Below are positions 28,820-63,981 of a stretch of 64,000 bases of DNA, in pieces. The DNA comes from an uncultured delta proteobacterium (lineage in GTDB: Bacteria; Desulfobacterota; Desulfomonilia; Desulfomonilales; Desulfomonilaceae). Location of the stretch: the NCBI GenBank assembly GCA_963789265.1, contig CAWBKB010000007.1:460398-524397 (forward strand). The letters are read 5' to 3'. Below the pieces are notes generated by a model, which was not told the DNA's origin, did not search any database, and saw nothing but the letters and a program-made list of their open reading frames with translations. A program made the translations under genes and the position numbers. Positions within the stretch are counted from its first letter, which is position 1; each line of letters opens with the position of its first letter.

Positions 28820-29876
28820 TCACAGAAAGGGCCCGAAAGCCAATGATACACTTCCACCAATCATGTAGACTGTGCGGTTAAGGTCCGCGTCGTAAGTCTG
28901 GGTCACCTGTGTACCGTCACTCCCAGTAGAAGTAAAGTCCCCTTCGGCATGACTCCATAGAGAATTCACCGTTGCAAAAGCCCCCACGCTGCACAAGGGT
29001 GACATGCGAAGAAACGTAGTGCAAAGAGAGTTCCTCAAAAATCGCACGCTTTGAGACCGCGTCCATGCCATCCCTTACTACTGGGGTAGAACCACCGAAA
29101 GTCATTCCAAAAATCGTCCTGGTGCTTGCCCAGGGAGAACCGATACCCCTGAGTATCAGAGCGCTGCGGCATCCGGCCCATGCAGCTTCAAAGCCGACAT
29201 AGGGCTGTATGGAGCTTATGGTCAAATCCGACTCGTCGAAAATTGTTGAAAATCCCGGAATTGTGGGGGGATTCTGCATGAGGAGATAGAAAGAGTCCCA
29301 ACGCAACCCACCCATTACCGAAAGCCACGGCGCACAATTGACCCCGACGGCTCCATCTATGAGGCCCCACCGATATTTTGTGCACGCCGACCAATCGCGG
29401 CTGATAAAGAGAGGAGGTGTTGCACAAATCGCAGTCTGGCTGGTGGCGGTCTCTGACGAGGGGATGAGGTATCTGCTTTCTGCCCGAGCGTAGAGGCATT
29501 CACCAAGCGGAACACGTGCCGAGCCGCCTACCCACACTCCATTCACTTTGTTGAACTGGATGAAAGTGGTTTCTTCACCAATCACTCCGCTCGTTCCTTC
29601 GGTGGAGAACTTGATCTTTCCGGCATCATCATTGACCTGCCACGCCGCGTAAGAGCCGAACAACACCGGTGGCTTAAGACAAGGGGGATAGGGCTGACAC
29701 AGCGATGCACCGCAACCGGGGCCACCTTGCAACGGCCCCACACCTGGAACTCCGACGCCTGGAGGTCCTCCCGGAACAGGACCCGGCACGCCGGCGGGCC
29801 ACATTTGAGCGCCCGCAATAGTTGCACCGGCGCAAAGGATTAAGAGGCAAGAGGCCATGAGGACGAGTCGTTTCAT
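28820..29876 (-). CDS. Exported, probable outer-membrane beta-barrel protein; +1 frameshift near 29012
   Basis: MKRL signal peptide, Pro/Gly linker, amphipathic strands; ORFs 28917..29888 and 28820..29071 join at a T-run; paralogue of 58263..59558. Confidence 0.65.
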
Positions 29877-56883: not shown

Positions 56884-57951
56884 ATGTCCAAAGTTATGAT
56901 TCAACCTTCAACTTACGAGAATGTCCGCGCGGCAGTGGACCGTGCATTCGAACTCTTCCCCTTGCAAATACGGAACAAGAAGATCCTGATAAAACCCAAT
57001 GTGCTCAGAGCCTCGGAGGCAAAAGAAGGCATCGTTACCCATCCCGCGGTGCTTAGTGCCGTAGTGGAAAAGGTCGAAGAAATGAGCCCCGCATCCATTG
57101 TTGTGGGGGACAACCCGGGGCTTTTCAACTATGGGGCGAATGAAGAAAGCTTCAAAACAGCAGGTCTGATGGAAGCAGCCAAGGGCTATTACCGCAACAT
57201 CGGTAACGATTCACGGAAAATTGATTTCAATGCCGATTTCATGCCCACTGTGAGCATCTCGCGAATTGTCTTGGACGCGGATATTATTATCAGCTTGCCG
57301 AAATTCAAAACACACGGTTTGACTGTCATCACTGGAGCCATCAAAAACAGTTACGGTATTCTGCCCGGCGCACAGAAGGCTAAGCTTCACAAGGCCGCGG
57401 GATGCGCGGAGCGTTTCCATGAAATGTTGGTGGATATCTTCCGGCTCCGGCCGCCCAACCTGTTCATAATGGATGCTGTGGTCGGAATGGAGGGGAATGG
57501 TCCCGCCTCCCCTGATCTGCGAGATATCGGCCTTATGTTGGCATCGGACAACGCTGTGGCTTTGGATGCTGTCGTTGCCAGGATGATGGGATGCGAACCG
57601 GGGCGGCTGCGATTCCTTCAGAAGGCCAAAGAAGTCGGTTTGGGGGACTATGACATCGGTGCGATTGAGATCTTTGGAGAATTGAAACAACTGCCCGACT
57701 TCAAGCTTCCCCCCTTGGGCGGCGAAGCGGTCATGAGTAACGAGGCCATACAGAAGATCATGCACAGTCGAACGACTGTGCGTCCCCAGGCTGACCCGGA
57801 ATCGTGCACCGGCTGCGGTACTTGCATCGACCAGTGTCCGATGTCAGCCTTGACCATGAGCGGCGATCTGCCGCAAGTCGACGCAGATACTTGTATTACT
57901 TGCTTTTGCTGTCAGGAAGTCTGTCCTGAGAAAGCAATGACCCTACGGTAG
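56884..57951 (+). CDS. DUF362 domain + 2x[4Fe-4S] ferredoxin protein
   Basis: LIKPN, THP, SLPKFKTH, MEGNGP; CTGCGTCIDQCP and CITCFCCQEVCP. Confidence 0.9.
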   Translation: MSKVMIQPSTYENVRAAVDRAFELFPLQIRNKKILIKPNVLRASEAKEGIVTHPAVLSAVVEKVEEMSPASIVVGDNPGLFNYGANEESFKTAGLMEAAKGYYRNIGNDSRKIDFNADFMPTVSISRIVLDADIIISLPKFKTHGLTVITGAIKNSYGILPGAQKAKLHKAAGCAERFHEMLVDIFRLRPPNLFIMDAVVGMEGNGPASPDLRDIGLMLASDNAVALDAVVARMMGCEPGRLRFLQKAKEVGLGDYDIGAIEIFGELKQLPDFKLPPLGGEAVMSNEAIQKIMHSRTTVRPQADPESCTGCGTCIDQCPMSALTMSGDLPQVDADTCITCFCCQEVCPEKAMTLR

Positions 57952-58079
57952 GGCCAAGAAATAGCCGTTCGTGCAGAAGAAGGATTACCGATTTGAACTG
58001 TGGCCGGCACGGAGGCCGGCCCTACCGACCAATAGGGCCGGCCTCCGTGCCGGCCATTAAGTGAACCCTCATAGGAAAA

Positions 58080-58108
58080 GATCCAATCGCCATTAGGGCG
58101 ATTGGATC
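58080..58108. terminator. Perfect 12-bp hairpin between convergent genes
   Basis: gatccaatcgcc-attag-ggcgattggatc. Confidence 0.55.
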
Positions 58109-58262
58109 ATGAGGGGAGGAGATCGGCCTGCCGAACCAGCCGGCAGTCCCTAGGTTTTCAAAGGCTACTCGAACCTTATGAGTGAAAATCAACTCGTGCT
58201 CTTTCAATTCATGGTTGTCAGCTCTCAGGAGGGCTCGTAAACTCCTGCCGCGTTTCCGCCTT

Positions 58263-59558
58263 TTAAAAAGCTAAATCCACCGTCAGACCAAGAGCCCAAT
58301 AGGATTGGTCGAGTTGGGCATTATCAGTTGAACCACTACCGGGAATGCCGCCGAAAATGTCTGTATGGGGAATGGTCTGATCACCGGTCCCCTGGTCAAT
58401 GCTCGCGTATATATTCCCATTGCCATCAAAACTCAGCCATTCTCCTCTGCCCCAAAAACCCATGCTAAGGCTCTGAGTAATGGGCGTTGAGGTCTCCAAT
58501 TCACCCAGGAGGAACCGGCCGTTACTGTCGTCCATTGTGTATTTAGTCTGGCTGATCTCACGCAGACCGGTTGTCGCGCCAATACAAAGGATGTCGAACG
58601 GATCCTGGAAATGATTCCACGCAAAAGGGCTGCCGATCAAGCGCAATTGGTATGTCGAACACTTTTCACAGCATGGAGGGGCACACTGAGGCGTGCCGCA
58701 CTGTTGTGGAGGACACTGGTCCCCACCGCATTTCTTTGAATTACAACCGCATCTTCCAGTGAGACGAAATCCAAAGTAAGGTATATACGATGTTTCCAGC
58801 GGGTCCTGAATTAATCCGGCGAACTCGCCGAAGTTGACTCCGCTCGGTCACACGCGGTGGCATGTTATCGCAGCTCCCGGTGGCCGTCCGGTAGCTGTGT
58901 CCGCCTGGGTTGAGTTTCGAGGATCCACAAGCTTGAAATCTATGTGCTCCACCATGAATCCGGCTTCCAGCGACCAATTGCTGGTGAGTCTATAGTCAAT
59001 GCCCGAGTCTATCATCCACCACTGGAAATTGTGGCTTGACCATATCCAAGGCGAAACTGTATTAGGCGGATTGTCGAGAAGAGGATTAGACGGGTTCGAA
59101 GGGAGAAACACCTTTCCCGTAGCATTCATCATCCAGGTATTGTCCCGTTGAATATTGCCGCCCAATTCTGTGTATAGAATTAGATCTCTAACGGGTTGAA
59201 TCTTTACGCCGGTGAATCCTACCCAGTATTGGCCGTCCAGAAGCTTGAGGTCCATGGCTTCGACGTTAAGCGCGTTAGTGACCCTGTCGATTACCTGGAC
59301 ACCCGGAACCAGCGAGAAAGGAAAACTGAATTCCCACTCCATCCACATGTAGCCGGCTCTGGCGTACGGCTTGATTGTCCACACCTCGTCCGCGTAGTAC
59401 GGGCCGGACGAACCGGCCCCGAGACCCGGCATCGGGGACAAAACACCTCCTCCGGGTGGCGAGGCCGGAAAAATCGGAGTGGGCGCACCCTGAGGCAACG
59501 CCACCGCCGGCAGCAATGCCATGAAAAGGGCGGCCAAGATCAATAGAAGTCTTTTCAT
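58263..59558 (-). CDS. Exported probable outer-membrane beta-barrel protein with in-frame TGA at codon 237 (candidate selenoprotein, 431 aa)
   Basis: ORFs 58848..59603 and 58263..58646 are in the same frame, separated only by the TGA at 58850-58848; signal peptide; ends YWALGLTVDLAF; GGAGG RBS. Confidence 0.7.
58815..58832 (-). promoter_or_regulatory. Candidate bacterial SECIS hairpin
   Basis: UUCGGCG-AGUU-CGCCGGA; apical loop begins 22 nt after UGA and has G at loop position 2. Confidence 0.55.
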
Positions 59559-59633
59559 AATTGAGCCTCCTTGAGAATTTCGGAAAGAGGTCTGAGCAGC
59601 CAACTGACAACTGCGATTCTACTCATCGTTAGT

Positions 59634-59662
59634 AGTCTATCAAAAAAAGACCCTGATGTCAA
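59634..59662 (-). promoter_or_regulatory. Sigma-70 promoter with very AT-rich upstream region
   Basis: TTGACA (59662-57) -17 nt- TAGACT (59639-34). Confidence 0.6.
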
Positions 59663-60384
59663 GCTATTAATTCGAATCTATTATAATTTAGATTATGTTT
59701 TATTCATAAAATATATTATGATATAAGCACATACCATTAATATTGAAGATTATATATTAAGATAATGGAGTTCGTGCCGTTTGCGGTAACGAATCCGCCG
59801 CCTCGTGCCTAACCGATGCGGGGCAGGACGATGGCAATAGTCATTGGGAAAGAGTTTACAAGGGCAGACCTGCAGAAACTGTCTCAAAGCGATTATGATG
59901 GCAATTGCTTGTCCCGGTAATTCTGTGTTCCGCGCGGAAGGCGCGACTGCCTGTCCCGCGTTCCGCGGGATCACCTTGGAACCCGATGCGAGGGTAGGTC
60001 ACGCCATGCCCGCCGCAATACGGAGGCCACGGGCCGCCCTGCTCGATGCCCGCGTACGCGGGCATGACGACAGGCATTCCTGCCTGAGCGGTACTATCAC
60101 ACCGGAATACGCTGCCACTTGCCTGAAAGCGAATCGTATAGCCTTCCGGGACGTTCGCATTTGAGCCCCATTGTGGCGATTGAATGTTTTATGGGGTCTG
60201 GTGAGCGAAGCCAACCGCATCGGTCGCGTAAAACCCGGCCAAGTGGTTCGCTGCGCTCACCACTCCCTACGGCGCTGGTCACATAAATACCGGGGGTCGA
60301 ATGATGCGGTTCCCCTGCATTCGCAGGGTCACCGCTTCGCTACGGGCGCAGCGCTTACCAAGACCAGAATTCTGGGACCATGCA

Positions 60385-61425
60385 CTAGGGCACAACGCTG
60401 GTCCGCCCAAGATCCGTAACTATGCCGAGGTTCCAACCGGTGAACATCAGAAGCCGTTTGATATTCTGATCTACCCAAATATCGGCTCGAGCTATGGTGC
60501 TCCTGGGGACATATACGAGATCGTTGCGATTCAGATAGAAATCGGAACGGGAGGTCATTTTGGACAGATCGGTGGTGCGCGTCATGAACCTGCCCCCGGG
60601 TCCCCTGGAAATAACCAGAACAGTCCTGGGTTCTGCCGTGGGTTTGGTCCCGCCGGCCAGAGCGATCGCTTGCTGTACGGTCGTTGGTCCTCTGGTAGCA
60701 AACACGCCGGGCCTGGCTACTTCGCCGTCCACAAAGATCAGGTTCCCCACAACTTCTTTAAGCAGGATGGATACCCTCAAGTCCGGAACGATCCTGGTGT
60801 AGTGCTGATTCACAACTCCGGTCAGTTGCGGTACTGTCAGGCCCTGAGCTCGCACGTCCCTTGCAAGGGGAAGTGAAATATAGCCGTCAGGCCTGACGCT
60901 AATGAGTCGTGCCGGTTCCCCGGCGCTTGCAACCGCCTTCTGTATCTCTTCCAGCTTGGCATCGAATTCTCTGACAGTGACCGTCAGGTCCGGATTCTTG
61001 AGCAGGTCCGAATAGACCCGTTGGAGCATCCGCTTTGCTTGGTCTGCGGTCATGCCAACCACAGACACATCGTCTTTGCGCGGGATGCTTATTCTGCCAT
61101 CGGGCCTGACCCGGACAGTACGGTTCATTTCCGGGTGAAACGTGAACTCGATGTCGATCTGATCTTTAACTCCAAGCCTGTAGGGACTGGCGGTGGCTGT
61201 GGGAATTGTTAAATAGAGGAACTCCAGAACATCGCCTTCGGCAAGCCTGTACAAGGACGAAGGGAAATACTGTGTCACGCGGTTTATAACCGCGGGCGGT
61301 GTCTCATTCACGGCGCCCCGATGGCGAGGAATCATGCAACCGCCCATCATCGCAACGACAATAGGTATTACTATTATTCGCAAGAGCTGGATTCGAAAAA
61401 CCTCAAATGAAAATTCATTGCTCAT
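60385..61425 (-). CDS. Polysaccharide export lipoprotein (Wza/OPX family)
   Basis: Lipobox-like MMGGC; YRL..GD.L, VRPDGRISIP twice, SLBB GEV.RPG..AIALAGG, DLVYVP. Confidence 0.85.
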   Translation of the reverse strand: MSNEFSFEVFRIQLLRIIVIPIVVAMMGGCMIPRHRGAVNETPPAVINRVTQYFPSSLYRLAEGDVLEFLYLTIPTATASPYRLGVKDQIDIEFTFHPEMNRTVRVRPDGRISIPRKDDVSVVGMTADQAKRMLQRVYSDLLKNPDLTVTVREFDAKLEEIQKAVASAGEPARLISVRPDGYISLPLARDVRAQGLTVPQLTGVVNQHYTRIVPDLRVSILLKEVVGNLIFVDGEVARPGVFATRGPTTVQQAIALAGGTKPTAEPRTVLVISRGPGGRFMTRTTDLSKMTSRSDFYLNRNDLVYVPRSTIARADIWVDQNIKRLLMFTGWNLGIVTDLGRTSVVP

Positions 61426-61518
61426 CGTAGCTCTTCCTCTTTGGGTGACTTCCCCCAAAAATCGGGCTTGGAGATGGCTCCGCTTCCATCTCCAACTCAT
61501 GTCAGGGAAGCGCGGCAA

Positions 61519-62403
61519 CTAGAAGGCCGCCTCCAGAGAGAAAACCAGTCCATCTCTCTGGAGCTCCAATTGTCTGCCAAGCAAGTTCTCCTGATTGAAA
61601 TAGAAACTCTCCAGCTCGTACCCGATCTTTCCTTCCACAAGCAGCGATCCGACGGGGCCCATGTCGACACATATACCTGTAGAAAGGTCTATATAATTAA
61701 GGTAGTTAGGGGTAACCCCATAAGTGATGCGCGCAAAACCGCCCACATTAACTCTTCTGTTCAAGGGCATGCGCGTCTGACCGTGGGCCCCGATACAAGG
61801 GACTAGTTCGTCGATGCTTATGGTGTCTTCTTGCTGTAATGCTCCGGATCTTATAGTGGACTCCAATCTGACGAACTTCAGATCGCCGTTCATGCCACCG
61901 AACCAGCGAGGGCCCACAAGAAAATCCAGGTCGTACCCGAAGCCGAACGTCCCGATGTTGAGTTGCGATTGAACTGCGCTACCCGCGGGATATGTGAACG
62001 ATTTGGTCTGCAACGAACGCTGCAGGATGGTTCCACCGCGGTAGAGCTCGGGTATGGTGCCGTAAACCCGCACCAGATGATGTTCCAGCGGCCGTATGGA
62101 GCCCGATATTTTGAAGGTCCTATTGTCGCCGGGCAACCCCATATCATTTAGGAAATCAATTACAGTCCCGGTTTGCCCGACACCCTGGGCTGTTCCCATT
62201 CTCCCTTCGATGCGGCTGAAGAAGGGCTCGAATTTCAGAGTTGCAAATCCGTTGTATTCCAAAGGCTCGGCAACAGATGGGGCCGGAAGCGTCACGAACA
62301 AGAAGGCAAGACATGCTGCAAATGCCGCAATATGGGCCGAGATAGTGCAAAAGGGTCTCTCTCCGGTCATCGCCATGCCATTCACTCCGCTTTGCTTGGC
62401 CAT
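61519..62403 (-). CDS. Exported probable outer-membrane beta-barrel protein
   Basis: Signal peptide, amphipathic strands, C-terminal DGLVFSLEAAF. Confidence 0.65.
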   Translation of the reverse strand: MAKQSGVNGMAMTGERPFCTISAHIAAFAACLAFLFVTLPAPSVAEPLEYNGFATLKFEPFFSRIEGRMGTAQGVGQTGTVIDFLNDMGLPGDNRTFKISGSIRPLEHHLVRVYGTIPELYRGGTILQRSLQTKSFTYPAGSAVQSQLNIGTFGFGYDLDFLVGPRWFGGMNGDLKFVRLESTIRSGALQQEDTISIDELVPCIGAHGQTRMPLNRRVNVGGFARITYGVTPNYLNYIDLSTGICVDMGPVGSLLVEGKIGYELESFYFNQENLLGRQLELQRDGLVFSLEAAF

Positions 62404-63981
62404 AGTAATTGTCTCCCGCGTGTACCGAGTCGGAGAGATCCTGACTGCGAGGGGCCGGATTTTGCCGGACTGGTAAGTGGCCGCGGCGCATTGCCATAGG
62501 TGGCTGCCCGCCGCCACACTCGAGGAGTTGTCACCACGCAGGGGAACTGCCGTCGCCTTGGAGATCCTTGGACACGGACCGTCGGGTCGTAGGCTCTTCC
62601 GCCAACCGAGAGATCGGCCTGTCGCGATGAATGGCCCTCTCGGTTGGCTGAAGAAATCACGGTTTGAGGCGGCGACGGAGCAAAGTAGGCAAGGATCTGA
62701 TCTGCAAAATGACCTGTTCGTGCAAGCAGGGGCCGTTTGGCAACAAATGGGGCCTCTCGCAACACGTAGAGCCCGTCTCTCGGTGCGATCCACCGGTCTC
62801 CCGGGGATGACGCGCCGCCGCAGGGCTCTATGGTAGGGGCTCGACCGTGAGCGGCCACGCTACCAGCCTTGTGTTGAAGAGTCTTCTCCTCGCTATAGAA
62901 CTGCTCTTTTTCCTTCTTCAGAAAATGCAGGTGCTCCGCAAGGCATTCGCGCATGGCGCTTCTCATTCCTTGGATCTCCAGATCCACAGCCGCGAGCTCT
63001 TTGCTGTGGGGCATAAACTGAGTAGCGAGGGACCTTTTCTTGATCTCCAGTTGGACTATTTTTTCTTGAAAGGGAGCCAAGGAAGGTAATCCTGTCAGGC
63101 TTACGTCGGACACGAAACCGCTGAACACCCCCTTCCCCGAATTGATGAGTTGCAGGGCAAGGCGGCAGCCGCGCTCCTCCAATTCTATTTTCTGTAGCCG
63201 AGAAGAAATGGTGGCAGCCAAATTACTGTCGATGGCATGCCGGTCCTTATACTGAGTTTGCTGAAACCGGTCCCGGGACTGCGCCTCGAGGGTACGCCGG
63301 TAGTCCGCATACCGACAAACGTAGGAGTCCAGCACGCTCCGGAGAAATTCGGGATCATCCCCCCTTAGTCGCAACAGCACCTTTGCAGTGGCGCCTGAAA
63401 CTTGGGAGCTGATGCATATTTCCTTGTTAAGCCATTTTTCCAAATCGTCCGGGCTGCCGAACCTCGAAAGCTGCGTAGGGCGGCTCTGGGTTCCTCTCTG
63501 CGAAACAAATTGTCCTGGCAAACAGGCGGGTCCTCGGTCATATAGTTTACGTGCCAATAGCTGAGAGATCCGGGGGCTTTTGAGTATTTGCACTTCCTTC
63601 TCCAGAGCATTCTCAGCAGCATCCCCGGAATTGTGATCCCGGTCGAAAAACAGAAGCTTCGTCTCTACGCGATAGCCGTCCAGACCAAATGATGTAAGCA
63701 ACCACGGCCATCATCGCCACACAGAATATCATGGCGGCAGAGGTCCAAGTTGCCGGATGCCGAAAACCAAATCCACTTCTCAGCCTCAGCAGTTTGTCCC
63801 AAAAAGGGGACAGACTGGGGTCTTCAGGATGCGCAGCGACTGCCTTGCCGTTTTGAACCTCACTAGATTTGTGCGAGACCGTTGCTTTTGGGTTGGCAGC
63901 GCTTCCGCGATCTCCGGCAAAGGCAAGCTTCTCCGCATCAAAGATCAGGTCGTCAAAGCTATGGTTATGATCAAGCGTCAC
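62382..63981 (-). CDS. Polysaccharide co-polymerase/GumC-like coiled-coil protein; frameshift near 63690
   Basis: TM near N-terminus, EVQILKS motif, coiled coil, FMPHSKE; upstream of the wza-like gene. Confidence 0.5.

Follow-up and report, generated by a model that had tools for sequence, protein, structure and literature searches.

The question raised by this locus is whether a TGA triplet in the middle of a long reading frame terminates translation or is read as selenocysteine (Sec, U). The window analyzed here, i.e. the whole stretch of 64,000 nucleotides from contig CAWBKB010000007.1 of an uncultured Desulfomonilaceae bacterium (assembly GCA_963789265.1), carries on its minus strand, at 58263-59558, one frame of 431 codons that starts with an ATG (59558-59556) and ends with a TAA (58265-58263), and its sole interruption is a TGA at 58850-58848, which is codon 237 in the residue context AITCHRV-U-PSGVNFGEF. 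The list of open reading frames (ORFs) cuts this gene into 58848..59603 and 58263..58646, both in one frame. A first-pass annotation, made from the letters alone, had proposed a selenoprotein gene for an outer-membrane β-barrel at this place, and its account of the frame and of the position of the TGA agrees with our re-reading of the sequence. As argued in the following, the in-frame TGA is almost certainly a genuine Sec codon in an outer-membrane β-barrel protein family of Desulfomonilaceae. The best explanation as a whole, to which we give a rough probability of 0.88, is that of a genuine selenoprotein with hairpin-guided Sec insertion, an omptin-like barrel, a chemistry based on Sec and Cys, and a link to exopolysaccharides.

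Conservation of the TGA and of the coding sequence beyond it

Six-frame searches with the read-through protein covered the window's own genome and 60 relatives (61 genomes in total). Matches at E <= 0.001 were found in 30 of them, all belonging to the family of the window: 29 of the 36 relatives from this family had such a match, versus 0 of the 24 from the sister family. With a threshold of E <= 1e-20, 24 of 70 genomes of the family match, and these are spread over 9 of its 26 genera. In the best frame of 33 loci, a script located the motif R-[VI]-x-x-G at 29, with a TGA at 28 and a TGT at one (L021); the four loci without the motif are two views of a broken copy in genome G006 and two distant paralogues. 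After removal of three duplicates, this makes 25 distinct TGA-bearing gene copies from 24 genomes of 10 Desulfomonilaceae genera, and the gene of the window, with its 431 codons, TAA and one Sec codon, is collinear with its orthologues over the full length. The alternation of TGA and Cys codons that had been anticipated for codon 237 is indeed found, as the 25 TGA copies are accompanied by five natural full-length homologues that have Cys at the Sec column (L021, P0003, P0004, P0008 and P0009). In the 22-row alignment, which consists of 19 TGA forms and 3 Cys forms, the column of the predicted Sec codon (58848..58850, minus strand) is U or C in 22 of 22 sequences, and conserved positions are present on both sides of it (I231, R235, G248, D252, P253, P260, G263, R265, R306 and a C-terminal F/Y).

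The coding sequence clearly continues beyond the TGA. Nei-Gojobori ratios of nonsynonymous to synonymous substitution rates (dN/dS), calculated for 10 orthologue pairs, were 0.054-0.175 downstream of the TGA versus 0.074-0.166 upstream (one upstream value being undefined), and as these values are equally low, purifying selection constrains the downstream half to the same degree as the upstream one, with no sign of pseudogene-like decay. The real gene stop after the final F/Y is itself a TGA in 12 of 22 orthologous loci. TGA thus also serves as true stop in these organisms, which means that there is no global reassignment and that decoding at codon 237 depends on context. Moreover, a Logan short-read contig of run X1 spans 58703-58997 with 0 differences to the window, including the TGA at 58848-58850, so that the TGA is no peculiarity of the assembly; in runs X2 and X6, the region was covered partially by relatives or not at all.

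In databases, the family has so far been represented in a fragmented form. A profile search against 1.84 billion representative proteins returned 225 relatives at E <= 0.001, of which 34 reached E <= 1e-30. Nineteen of the database proteins that were examined terminate exactly at the R-[IV] that precedes the Sec column, because gene callers stopped at the TGA, and others begin just past the column. The public orthologues are 'hypothetical protein' fragments, such as the 229-aa WP_014808657.1 of Desulfomonile tiedjei DSM 6799, which is the pre-TGA part of the translation of locus L019.

Could the TGA nevertheless be an ordinary stop, either between two genes (encoding an N-terminal protein of ~236 aa and a C-terminal one of 127-190 aa) or as a nonsense mutation in a decaying pseudogene? 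Gene callers do annotate the locus in this way, e.g. as hypothetical proteins of 229-256 aa and 151 aa, and the G006 orthologue is broken by a TAG and by frame changes. However, this explanation has to face the same TGA column in 25 gene copies of 10 genera, a continuing frame with a downstream dN/dS of 0.05-0.18, and Cys forms that run uninterrupted. The 10-stranded barrel described below requires both halves, with the C-terminal Phe signal in the second one, and there is no start codon or ribosome-binding site directly past the TGA, the first listed start being a TTG at 58646, which is 68 codons further on. We give an ordinary stop next to no credence.

Some family members have an unusual structure. 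The mentioned orthologue in the window's genus (L018/L038, G006:C15:190895-192229) is divided into four fragments in different frames and contains an additional TAG; it is either a pseudogene or a product of long-read indel errors. In genus g13, two genomes (L055 in G018:C4, and G093:C10) have two tandem barrel genes with a TGA at the same column in each. Within the window itself, the minus-strand frame 28820-29876 had been taken by the first-pass annotation as an uninterrupted paralogue that matches the sequence past the TGA. This part of its argument is weak: the similarity is marginal when the profile of the family is used for comparison (hhalign probability 52%, E 1.4e-4) and not significant in a pairwise alignment (BLASTP E 0.31), and the frame is interrupted by two stops near its 3′ end. 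It is a distant paralogue without the Sec loop and, in this frame, without the terminal Phe strand; the two stops together with the missing strand make a frameshift or an assembly indel likely.

The hairpin after the TGA and the selenocysteine machinery

If the TGA is decoded as Sec, what would direct the ribosome to do so? The bacterial selenocysteine insertion sequence (SECIS) is a hairpin just 3′ of the UGA that has a small apical loop with a G. A SECIS-like structure composed of a lower helix and an apical hairpin is present at 58796..58846 (minus strand), and its 7-bp stem UUCGGCG/CGCCGGA (arms 58832-58826 and 58821-58815) and AGUU loop (58825-58822), which begins 22 nt past the UGA, are found as initially described. 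The 63-nt fold has a minimum free energy of -22.8 kcal/mol (z-score -2.24); among 200 shuffled sequences, 7 were equally stable. In most genera, the usual hairpin is [AG][CU]CGG[CU]C-AG[GU]U-G[GA][CU]CGG[CU] with a loop that begins 16 nt past the UGA, and the distance of 22 nt in the window's genus is due to a two-codon insertion. With the loop G at the second position and 16-22 nt between UGA and loop, the geometry agrees with the bacterial SECIS model.

That the downstream hairpin is conserved and covaries among relatives, as the first-pass annotation had anticipated, can be concluded from several observations. The hairpin is retained across differing encoded peptides (NFGEFAG versus GQ[VL]xGD). 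Among 20 distinct sequences, 80% of the 140 cells of the 7-pair stem are standard pairs, a value that was reached by 0 of 500 shuffles, with 21-55% in controls slid by 1-3 columns. Compensatory changes on both sides occur in 4 of the 7 stem pairs (13 cells), and hairpin variants of genera g13 and g14, e.g. UCCAUC-AGGGU-GAUGGA and CACCUC-AGGGU-GAGGUG, are mutually compensatory. Locus L021, the sole Cys form with DNA in hand, has no such hairpin.

The genome of the window contains the expected set of selA (594 bits), selB (386 bits), selC (tRNA-Sec, 71 bits) and selD (360 bits), all above the curated cut-offs. The selD gene, which lies outside the window (locus L008, G000:C7:193442-194362), is itself a selenoprotein gene with an in-frame TGA (LTQASGUAAKLAP) that is followed by the hairpin CUCCAGG-GGA-CCUGGAG, and two formate-dehydrogenase-like genes (fdhA; L068 and L069) have a TGA in UH context. 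The hairpin of the barrel gene resembles those after the selD and fdhA TGAs.

An alternative to Sec insertion would be that the UGA is decoded as Trp, Cys, Arg or Gly by near-cognate or programmed read-through, with the hairpin acting as a stimulator without SelB. Read-through of stop codons that is stimulated by downstream structures is known elsewhere, and the assignment of Sec as the inserted residue is a prediction made by comparing homologues. Against this alternative speak the Cys in 5 of the 6 homologues without TGA, which is the classic Sec/Cys pairing, the SECIS geometry of the hairpin and its resemblance to those of selD and fdhA, and the presence of a complete Sec machinery in the genome. 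We regard such a non-Sec decoding as very improbable.

Predicted fold, topology and cysteine pattern

An AlphaFold2 model was generated with the 22-row alignment as input, in which Cys stood in for Sec. With a predicted local distance difference test score (pLDDT) of 75.5 and a predicted template modelling score (pTM) of 0.71, it contains 10 long strands (residues 61-79, 101-123, 126-147, 171-190, 195-217, 245-269, 302-326, 333-359, 364-389 and 407-429), most of them with pLDDT >85, and the segments between them alternate between long and short (21, 2, 23, 4, 27, 32 (~10 in other genera), 6, 4 and 17 residues). The model thus bears out the idea of a β-barrel with Sec in a loop. The best PDB matches by Foldseek were OmpT and Pla, with target-normalised template modelling (TM) scores of 0.60-0.70 in the top ten rows at 9-12% identity (OmpT 1i78_B: 0.70, E 1.7e-9). 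VIA-align, run against 48,161 representative chains, placed pOmpT 7xw0_A first (Z 22.7, root-mean-square deviation 3.2, 248/265 residues), followed by OpcA as runner-up (Z 17.5), and the look-alikes of the Cys form P0003 in the protein Atlas were generic outer-membrane ones, namely Pom and omptin clusters. Strand 5 carries the conserved residues E204-H205-x-D207 and D212-P-R-N215, and on strand 6 the residues G248 and D252-P253 are conserved.

Given a periplasmic N-terminus, Sec237 would lie in the extracellular loop 3. A Cys/Pro-rich stretch (residues 270-299; 58662..58751, minus strand), which is evident from the alignment and modelled with pLDDT <50, would by strand parity be placed in the periplasmic turn 3. 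This stretch is enlarged in the window's genus, and every homologue with U or C at the Sec column retains at least two Cys there.

The predicted loop 3 also contains Cys233 (58860..58862, minus strand), which was assigned by homologue comparison as the C of the C-x3-U motif that had been pointed out in the first-pass annotation. This motif is real and nearly universal among Sec forms, as a Cys at position -4 is present in all Sec forms that were read except for L023/L033 (Ser) and P0005 (Gly). At this position, all five Cys forms have a residue other than Cys, and three of them (L021, P0008 and P0009) have a CPxC that begins at the Sec-equivalent Cys. CPxC is typical of thiol-disulfide oxidoreductases, and the combination of C-x3-U in Sec forms with CPxC in Cys forms suggests a redox pair. 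The redox-type motif and the Cys residues of turn 3 are both missing from the more distant relative P0015, which has Leu at the Sec column, and from the distant paralogues that were examined; this joint absence could be due to coupled functions or to common ancestry alone. The Cys pattern would best be read as that of a selenol/thiol pair with a selenylsulfide as part of its redox cycle, and metal or sulfur binding is a live alternative.

In that alternative, Sec and the nearby Cys residues would bind a metal, a metalloid, or sulfur/polysulfide at the cell surface for capture or detoxification, and no redox cycling would be involved. The expanded Cys/Pro-rich stretch with its at least two Cys in all U/C forms would suit such a function, the table of a 2026 review includes several predicted families of metal-binding selenoproteins (PMC13188914), and a study of 2026 reported a multihaem selenoenzyme that is extracytoplasmic and serves sulfur respiration (PMC13510729). 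Strand parity, however, would place the Cys-rich stretch in the periplasm and Sec on the outer side, and no conserved metal-related genes adjoin the barrel gene among the selected ORFs that were scanned. The CPxC of three out of five Cys forms also speaks for thiol-disulfide chemistry rather than for binding. We consider this function unlikely. In more general terms, the protein may be a redox- or metal-active surface protein, as the first-pass annotation had suggested.

Gene neighbourhood

From the ORFs listed around 11 loci, 61 were selected for the neighbourhood scan. The upstream neighbour in the window (60385..61518, minus strand) was recognized by domain scan as a polysaccharide export protein with Poly_export and SLBB domains and no Wza_C match, and its best NCBIfam matches, the PEP-CTERM export protein and EpsY, are both below cut-off. 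A Poly_export gene is found within ~6 kb of the barrel gene at 5 of the 11 loci (4 of 8 genera), and some polysaccharide gene, i.e. Poly_export, PgaB-like deacetylase, WecB, Wzy_C, FemAB-like or PMT_2, at 7 of 11. The PgaB-like deacetylase adjoins the barrel gene in three genera, and PaaK-like ligases were also seen. Further upstream in the window follow a protein of ~260 residues (mature) that ends in Phe and has invariant RPLEHH and GYDLD motifs (61522-62403, minus strand; AlphaFold2 pLDDT of 39 with 5 sequences), and a coiled-coil protein of ~544 aa that appears to be split over two frames here (62382-63981, minus strand). This three-gene module of coiled-coil protein, Phe-ending protein and Poly_export protein accompanies the barrel in four genera.

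Does the barrel then simply conduct polysaccharide, as a Wzp-like porin partner of an adjacent outer-membrane polysaccharide export (OPX) protein of class-3 type, with Sec being peripheral? In the window and at four other loci, the gene is directly downstream of a Poly_export and SLBB protein without Wza_C match, EpsY is among the best matches of this OPX protein (below cut-off, as mentioned), and OPX proteins of class 3 reportedly have β-barrel partners that are encoded next to them (PMC9603273). The published partners are 18-stranded PgaA-like barrels in that source, whereas the model here has 10 strands with omptins and OpcA as best matches; that PgaA is not among the structural matches listed by Foldseek and VIA-align says little by itself. 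A class-3 OPX neighbour is found at 5 of 11 loci, the corresponding 16-18-stranded PgaA-like barrel is not what the model shows, and the Poly_export neighbourhood is missing at 6 of 11 loci. The small Phe-ending protein, encoded between genes for a polysaccharide co-polymerase (PCP)-like protein and the OPX protein, could also fill that role, and it might be this neighbour, rather than the 10-stranded barrel, that is the OPX porin partner. A role of the selenoprotein as Wzp-like porin is thus in our view quite doubtful.

Two further observations concern the surroundings of the gene. A dispersed short repeat lies between the Poly_export and selenoprotein genes (59930-60140), and with a 605-nt query (59780-60384), another 44 incomplete copies (35-215 nt, 70-97% identity) were detected, which are spread over six contigs of the genome. 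It looks like a repetitive extragenic palindromic (REP) or miniature inverted-repeat transposable element (MITE)-like sequence, and it accounts for the unusually long intergenic gap of 826 nt. The convergent neighbour (56884-57951, plus strand) encodes a DUF362 protein with a C-terminal 2x[4Fe-4S] ferredoxin domain, and is not conserved beside the barrel gene in other genera.

Local features of the gene

Direct reading of the sequence reveals a Shine-Dalgarno motif AAGGAGG (59566..59572, minus strand) 7 nt ahead of the ATG at 59558. By its match to the consensus, a promoter-like TTGACA-17-TAGACT (59634..59662, minus strand; 10/12 positions, TG before the -10 element) lies in AT-rich surroundings; 5 promoter-like sites were found, versus 2.5 +/- 1.5 in shuffles. 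Residues 1-20 (MKRLLLILAALFMALLPAVA; 59499..59558, minus strand) have the features of a signal peptide, namely a basic n-region, a hydrophobic core and an AxA motif (AVA|LP) after which cleavage would be expected, and form a helix (residues 2-20) in the model. A Pro/Gly-rich linker of ~35 residues follows. At the other end, sequence and alignment indicate a β-signal-like C-terminal strand with a final Phe (YWALGLTVDLAF; 58266..58301, minus strand), and 21 of 22 alignment rows end with F or Y, the row of L017 having stopped one residue before a terminal I.

About 155 nt past the stop of the gene, a 12-bp perfect palindrome followed by T's (GATCCAATCGCC…GGCGATTGGATC; 58080-58108, minus strand) is terminator-like and overlaps a 61-codon ORF at 58022-58207. 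An Rfam scan of 58000-60500 gave chance-level matches only.

Proposed mechanism and its weak points

How could such a protein be made and function? As comparison with the relatives indicates, the hairpin that closely follows UGA-237 would recruit SelB together with Sec-tRNA(Sec), which leads to the insertion of Sec. The 431-residue chain would then be exported via its signal peptide and, judging from sequence and model, fold into a tall, 10-stranded omptin-like outer-membrane barrel that ends with the C-terminal Phe. Sec237 would be positioned in the extracellular loop 3, four residues past Cys233, after the conserved residues of strand 5 and before those of strand 6. At this barrel mouth, Sec237 and Cys233 may constitute a redox-active selenol/thiol pair that forms a selenylsulfide, for which the Cys relatives may use their CPxC. 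Finally, and this is the least certain step, the gene neighbourhood suggests that the protein could work together with an exopolysaccharide export and modification locus.

A more far-reaching possibility is that of a surface-exposed selenoenzyme built on the omptin-like barrel, in which Sec237, with Cys233 and the conserved Glu/His/Asp/Arg residues at the barrel mouth, would serve as nucleophile or redox centre for an extracellular substrate such as exported polysaccharide, polysulfide or a metalloid, possibly coupled to the periplasmic Cys cluster. We consider this tentative and rather unlikely. If it held true, an outer-membrane barrel enzyme whose active site uses selenocysteine chemistry would be described for the first time.

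Several observations weigh against parts of the selenoprotein explanation. First of all, selenium at codon 237 is predicted by comparison. In the hairpin analysis, neither the number of pairs changed on both sides (observed value reached by 179 of 500 shuffles) nor the number of further pair types (reached by 362 of 500) is above shuffles, the hairpin is shifted in genera g13 and g14, and it fits poorly in L022. The full-length relative P0015 indicates with its Leu that the residue at the Sec column is dispensable in at least one lineage, and Cys233 is not universal either, given the Ser and Gly forms mentioned. His205 is lost in genus g9 (L024, L025), for which reason a strict Cys/His/Asp catalytic triad was dropped as a candidate. 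The Sec loop and the Cys-rich stretch are exactly the parts of the model that have low confidence (pLDDT of 52-61 around residues 221-250, and <50 at 239-244 and 272-298), and the assignment of membrane sides would follow from strand parity and loop lengths rather than from coordinates. The polysaccharide neighbourhood, lastly, is absent at 4 of 11 loci (L050, L053, L054 and L058), including a Cys-form locus.

What would the selenoprotein explanation imply? It adds a well-supported family to the ~119 that are catalogued, and the outer-membrane barrel, with Sec probably facing outward, is a location where selenoproteins are very rare. It also corrects a systematic mis-annotation, as at least 24 genomes have the gene in a split or truncated version. 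As a cultured strain (D. tiedjei DSM 6799) carries the gene, selenium incorporation and function are directly testable. The switch from C-x3-U to CPxC represents a clean natural experiment on the relocation of a resolving Cys when Sec is replaced, and the link to exopolysaccharide loci suggests that selenium may play an unrecognized role in the envelope or biofilm chemistry of anaerobes.

Comparison with known systems

The family is not detected by the established models, in agreement with the first-pass annotation that had not recognized it as a described one. In scans with the read-through protein, Pfam gave chance-level matches only, with no Omptin (PF01278) match at E <= 1, no NCBIfam family was matched at E <= 1, and a search of PDB sequences with the profile of the family yielded no chain at E <= 10. 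Its distribution is narrow: when 401 genomes sampled from the whole phylum were searched, the window's own genome and 4 of 7 sampled genomes of its family had matches at E <= 1e-15, versus 0 of 393 genomes of other sampled families, and a search with a 7-row alignment returned 8 close related loci in Desulfomonilaceae. The family is also absent from Table 1 of the 2026 review, which lists 119 prokaryotic selenoprotein families and, as outer-membrane barrels, only the GSU2204 or MtrB/PioB type (NF041027) and the FCYXU-type TonB receptor (NF049945) (PMC13188914). In the literature on outer-membrane barrel selenoproteins, only these two families were found; this refers to the texts consulted, and supplementary tables or a groundwater metagenome-assembled genome study cited in the review could list this family as an unnamed candidate. 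A family of this kind is not mentioned in the consulted passages of the papers on deep-Sep and BSepDB.

With the GSU2204 family, the protein shares the predicted nature of an outer-membrane barrel selenoprotein of Thermodesulfobacteriota-type anaerobes (PMC13188914), but it has no CXXCH, is far below the size of the 580-position model, and has a 10-strand fold. NF041027 matches neither the read-through protein nor anything in the window's genome, and the sole link is a chance-level Pfam match to MtrB_PioB (E 0.32). The FCYXU-type TonB-dependent receptor, predicted in Desulfobacterota according to the consulted part of its description, is likewise an outer-membrane barrel selenoprotein with a Cys shortly before Sec (CxxU), whereas our protein has neither a plug nor a 22-strand receptor architecture, and its spacing is C-x3-U. 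NF049945 gave no match among the NCBIfam families at E <= 1, the presence of this model in the searched copy not having been separately checked. Wzp porins (WzpX/S/B) share with it the position of a barrel gene beside a short Poly_export-SLBB gene in a polysaccharide locus, differ in strand number as discussed, and no Sec is reported for them in the consulted part of PMC9603273.

In terms of structure, the closest systems are the omptins (OmpT, Pla and pOmpT; PF01278), which came out as best matches with two methods and whose tall 10-stranded outer-membrane barrel is also what the model predicts here. The sequence identity of 9-11% and the missing Pfam match set the selenoprotein apart from them, as do its conserved polar residues, which are located on strands 5 and 6 and in loop 3. 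The catalytic Asp/Asp and Asp/His pairs of omptins would lie elsewhere, and to our knowledge omptins have neither Sec nor a catalytic Cys. By its predicted model, the protein thus has an omptin architecture, yet it is not a detectable member of the omptin family. The gene founds a selenoprotein family that is not yet catalogued, with a recoding mechanism that is ordinary and a fold and location that are unusual.

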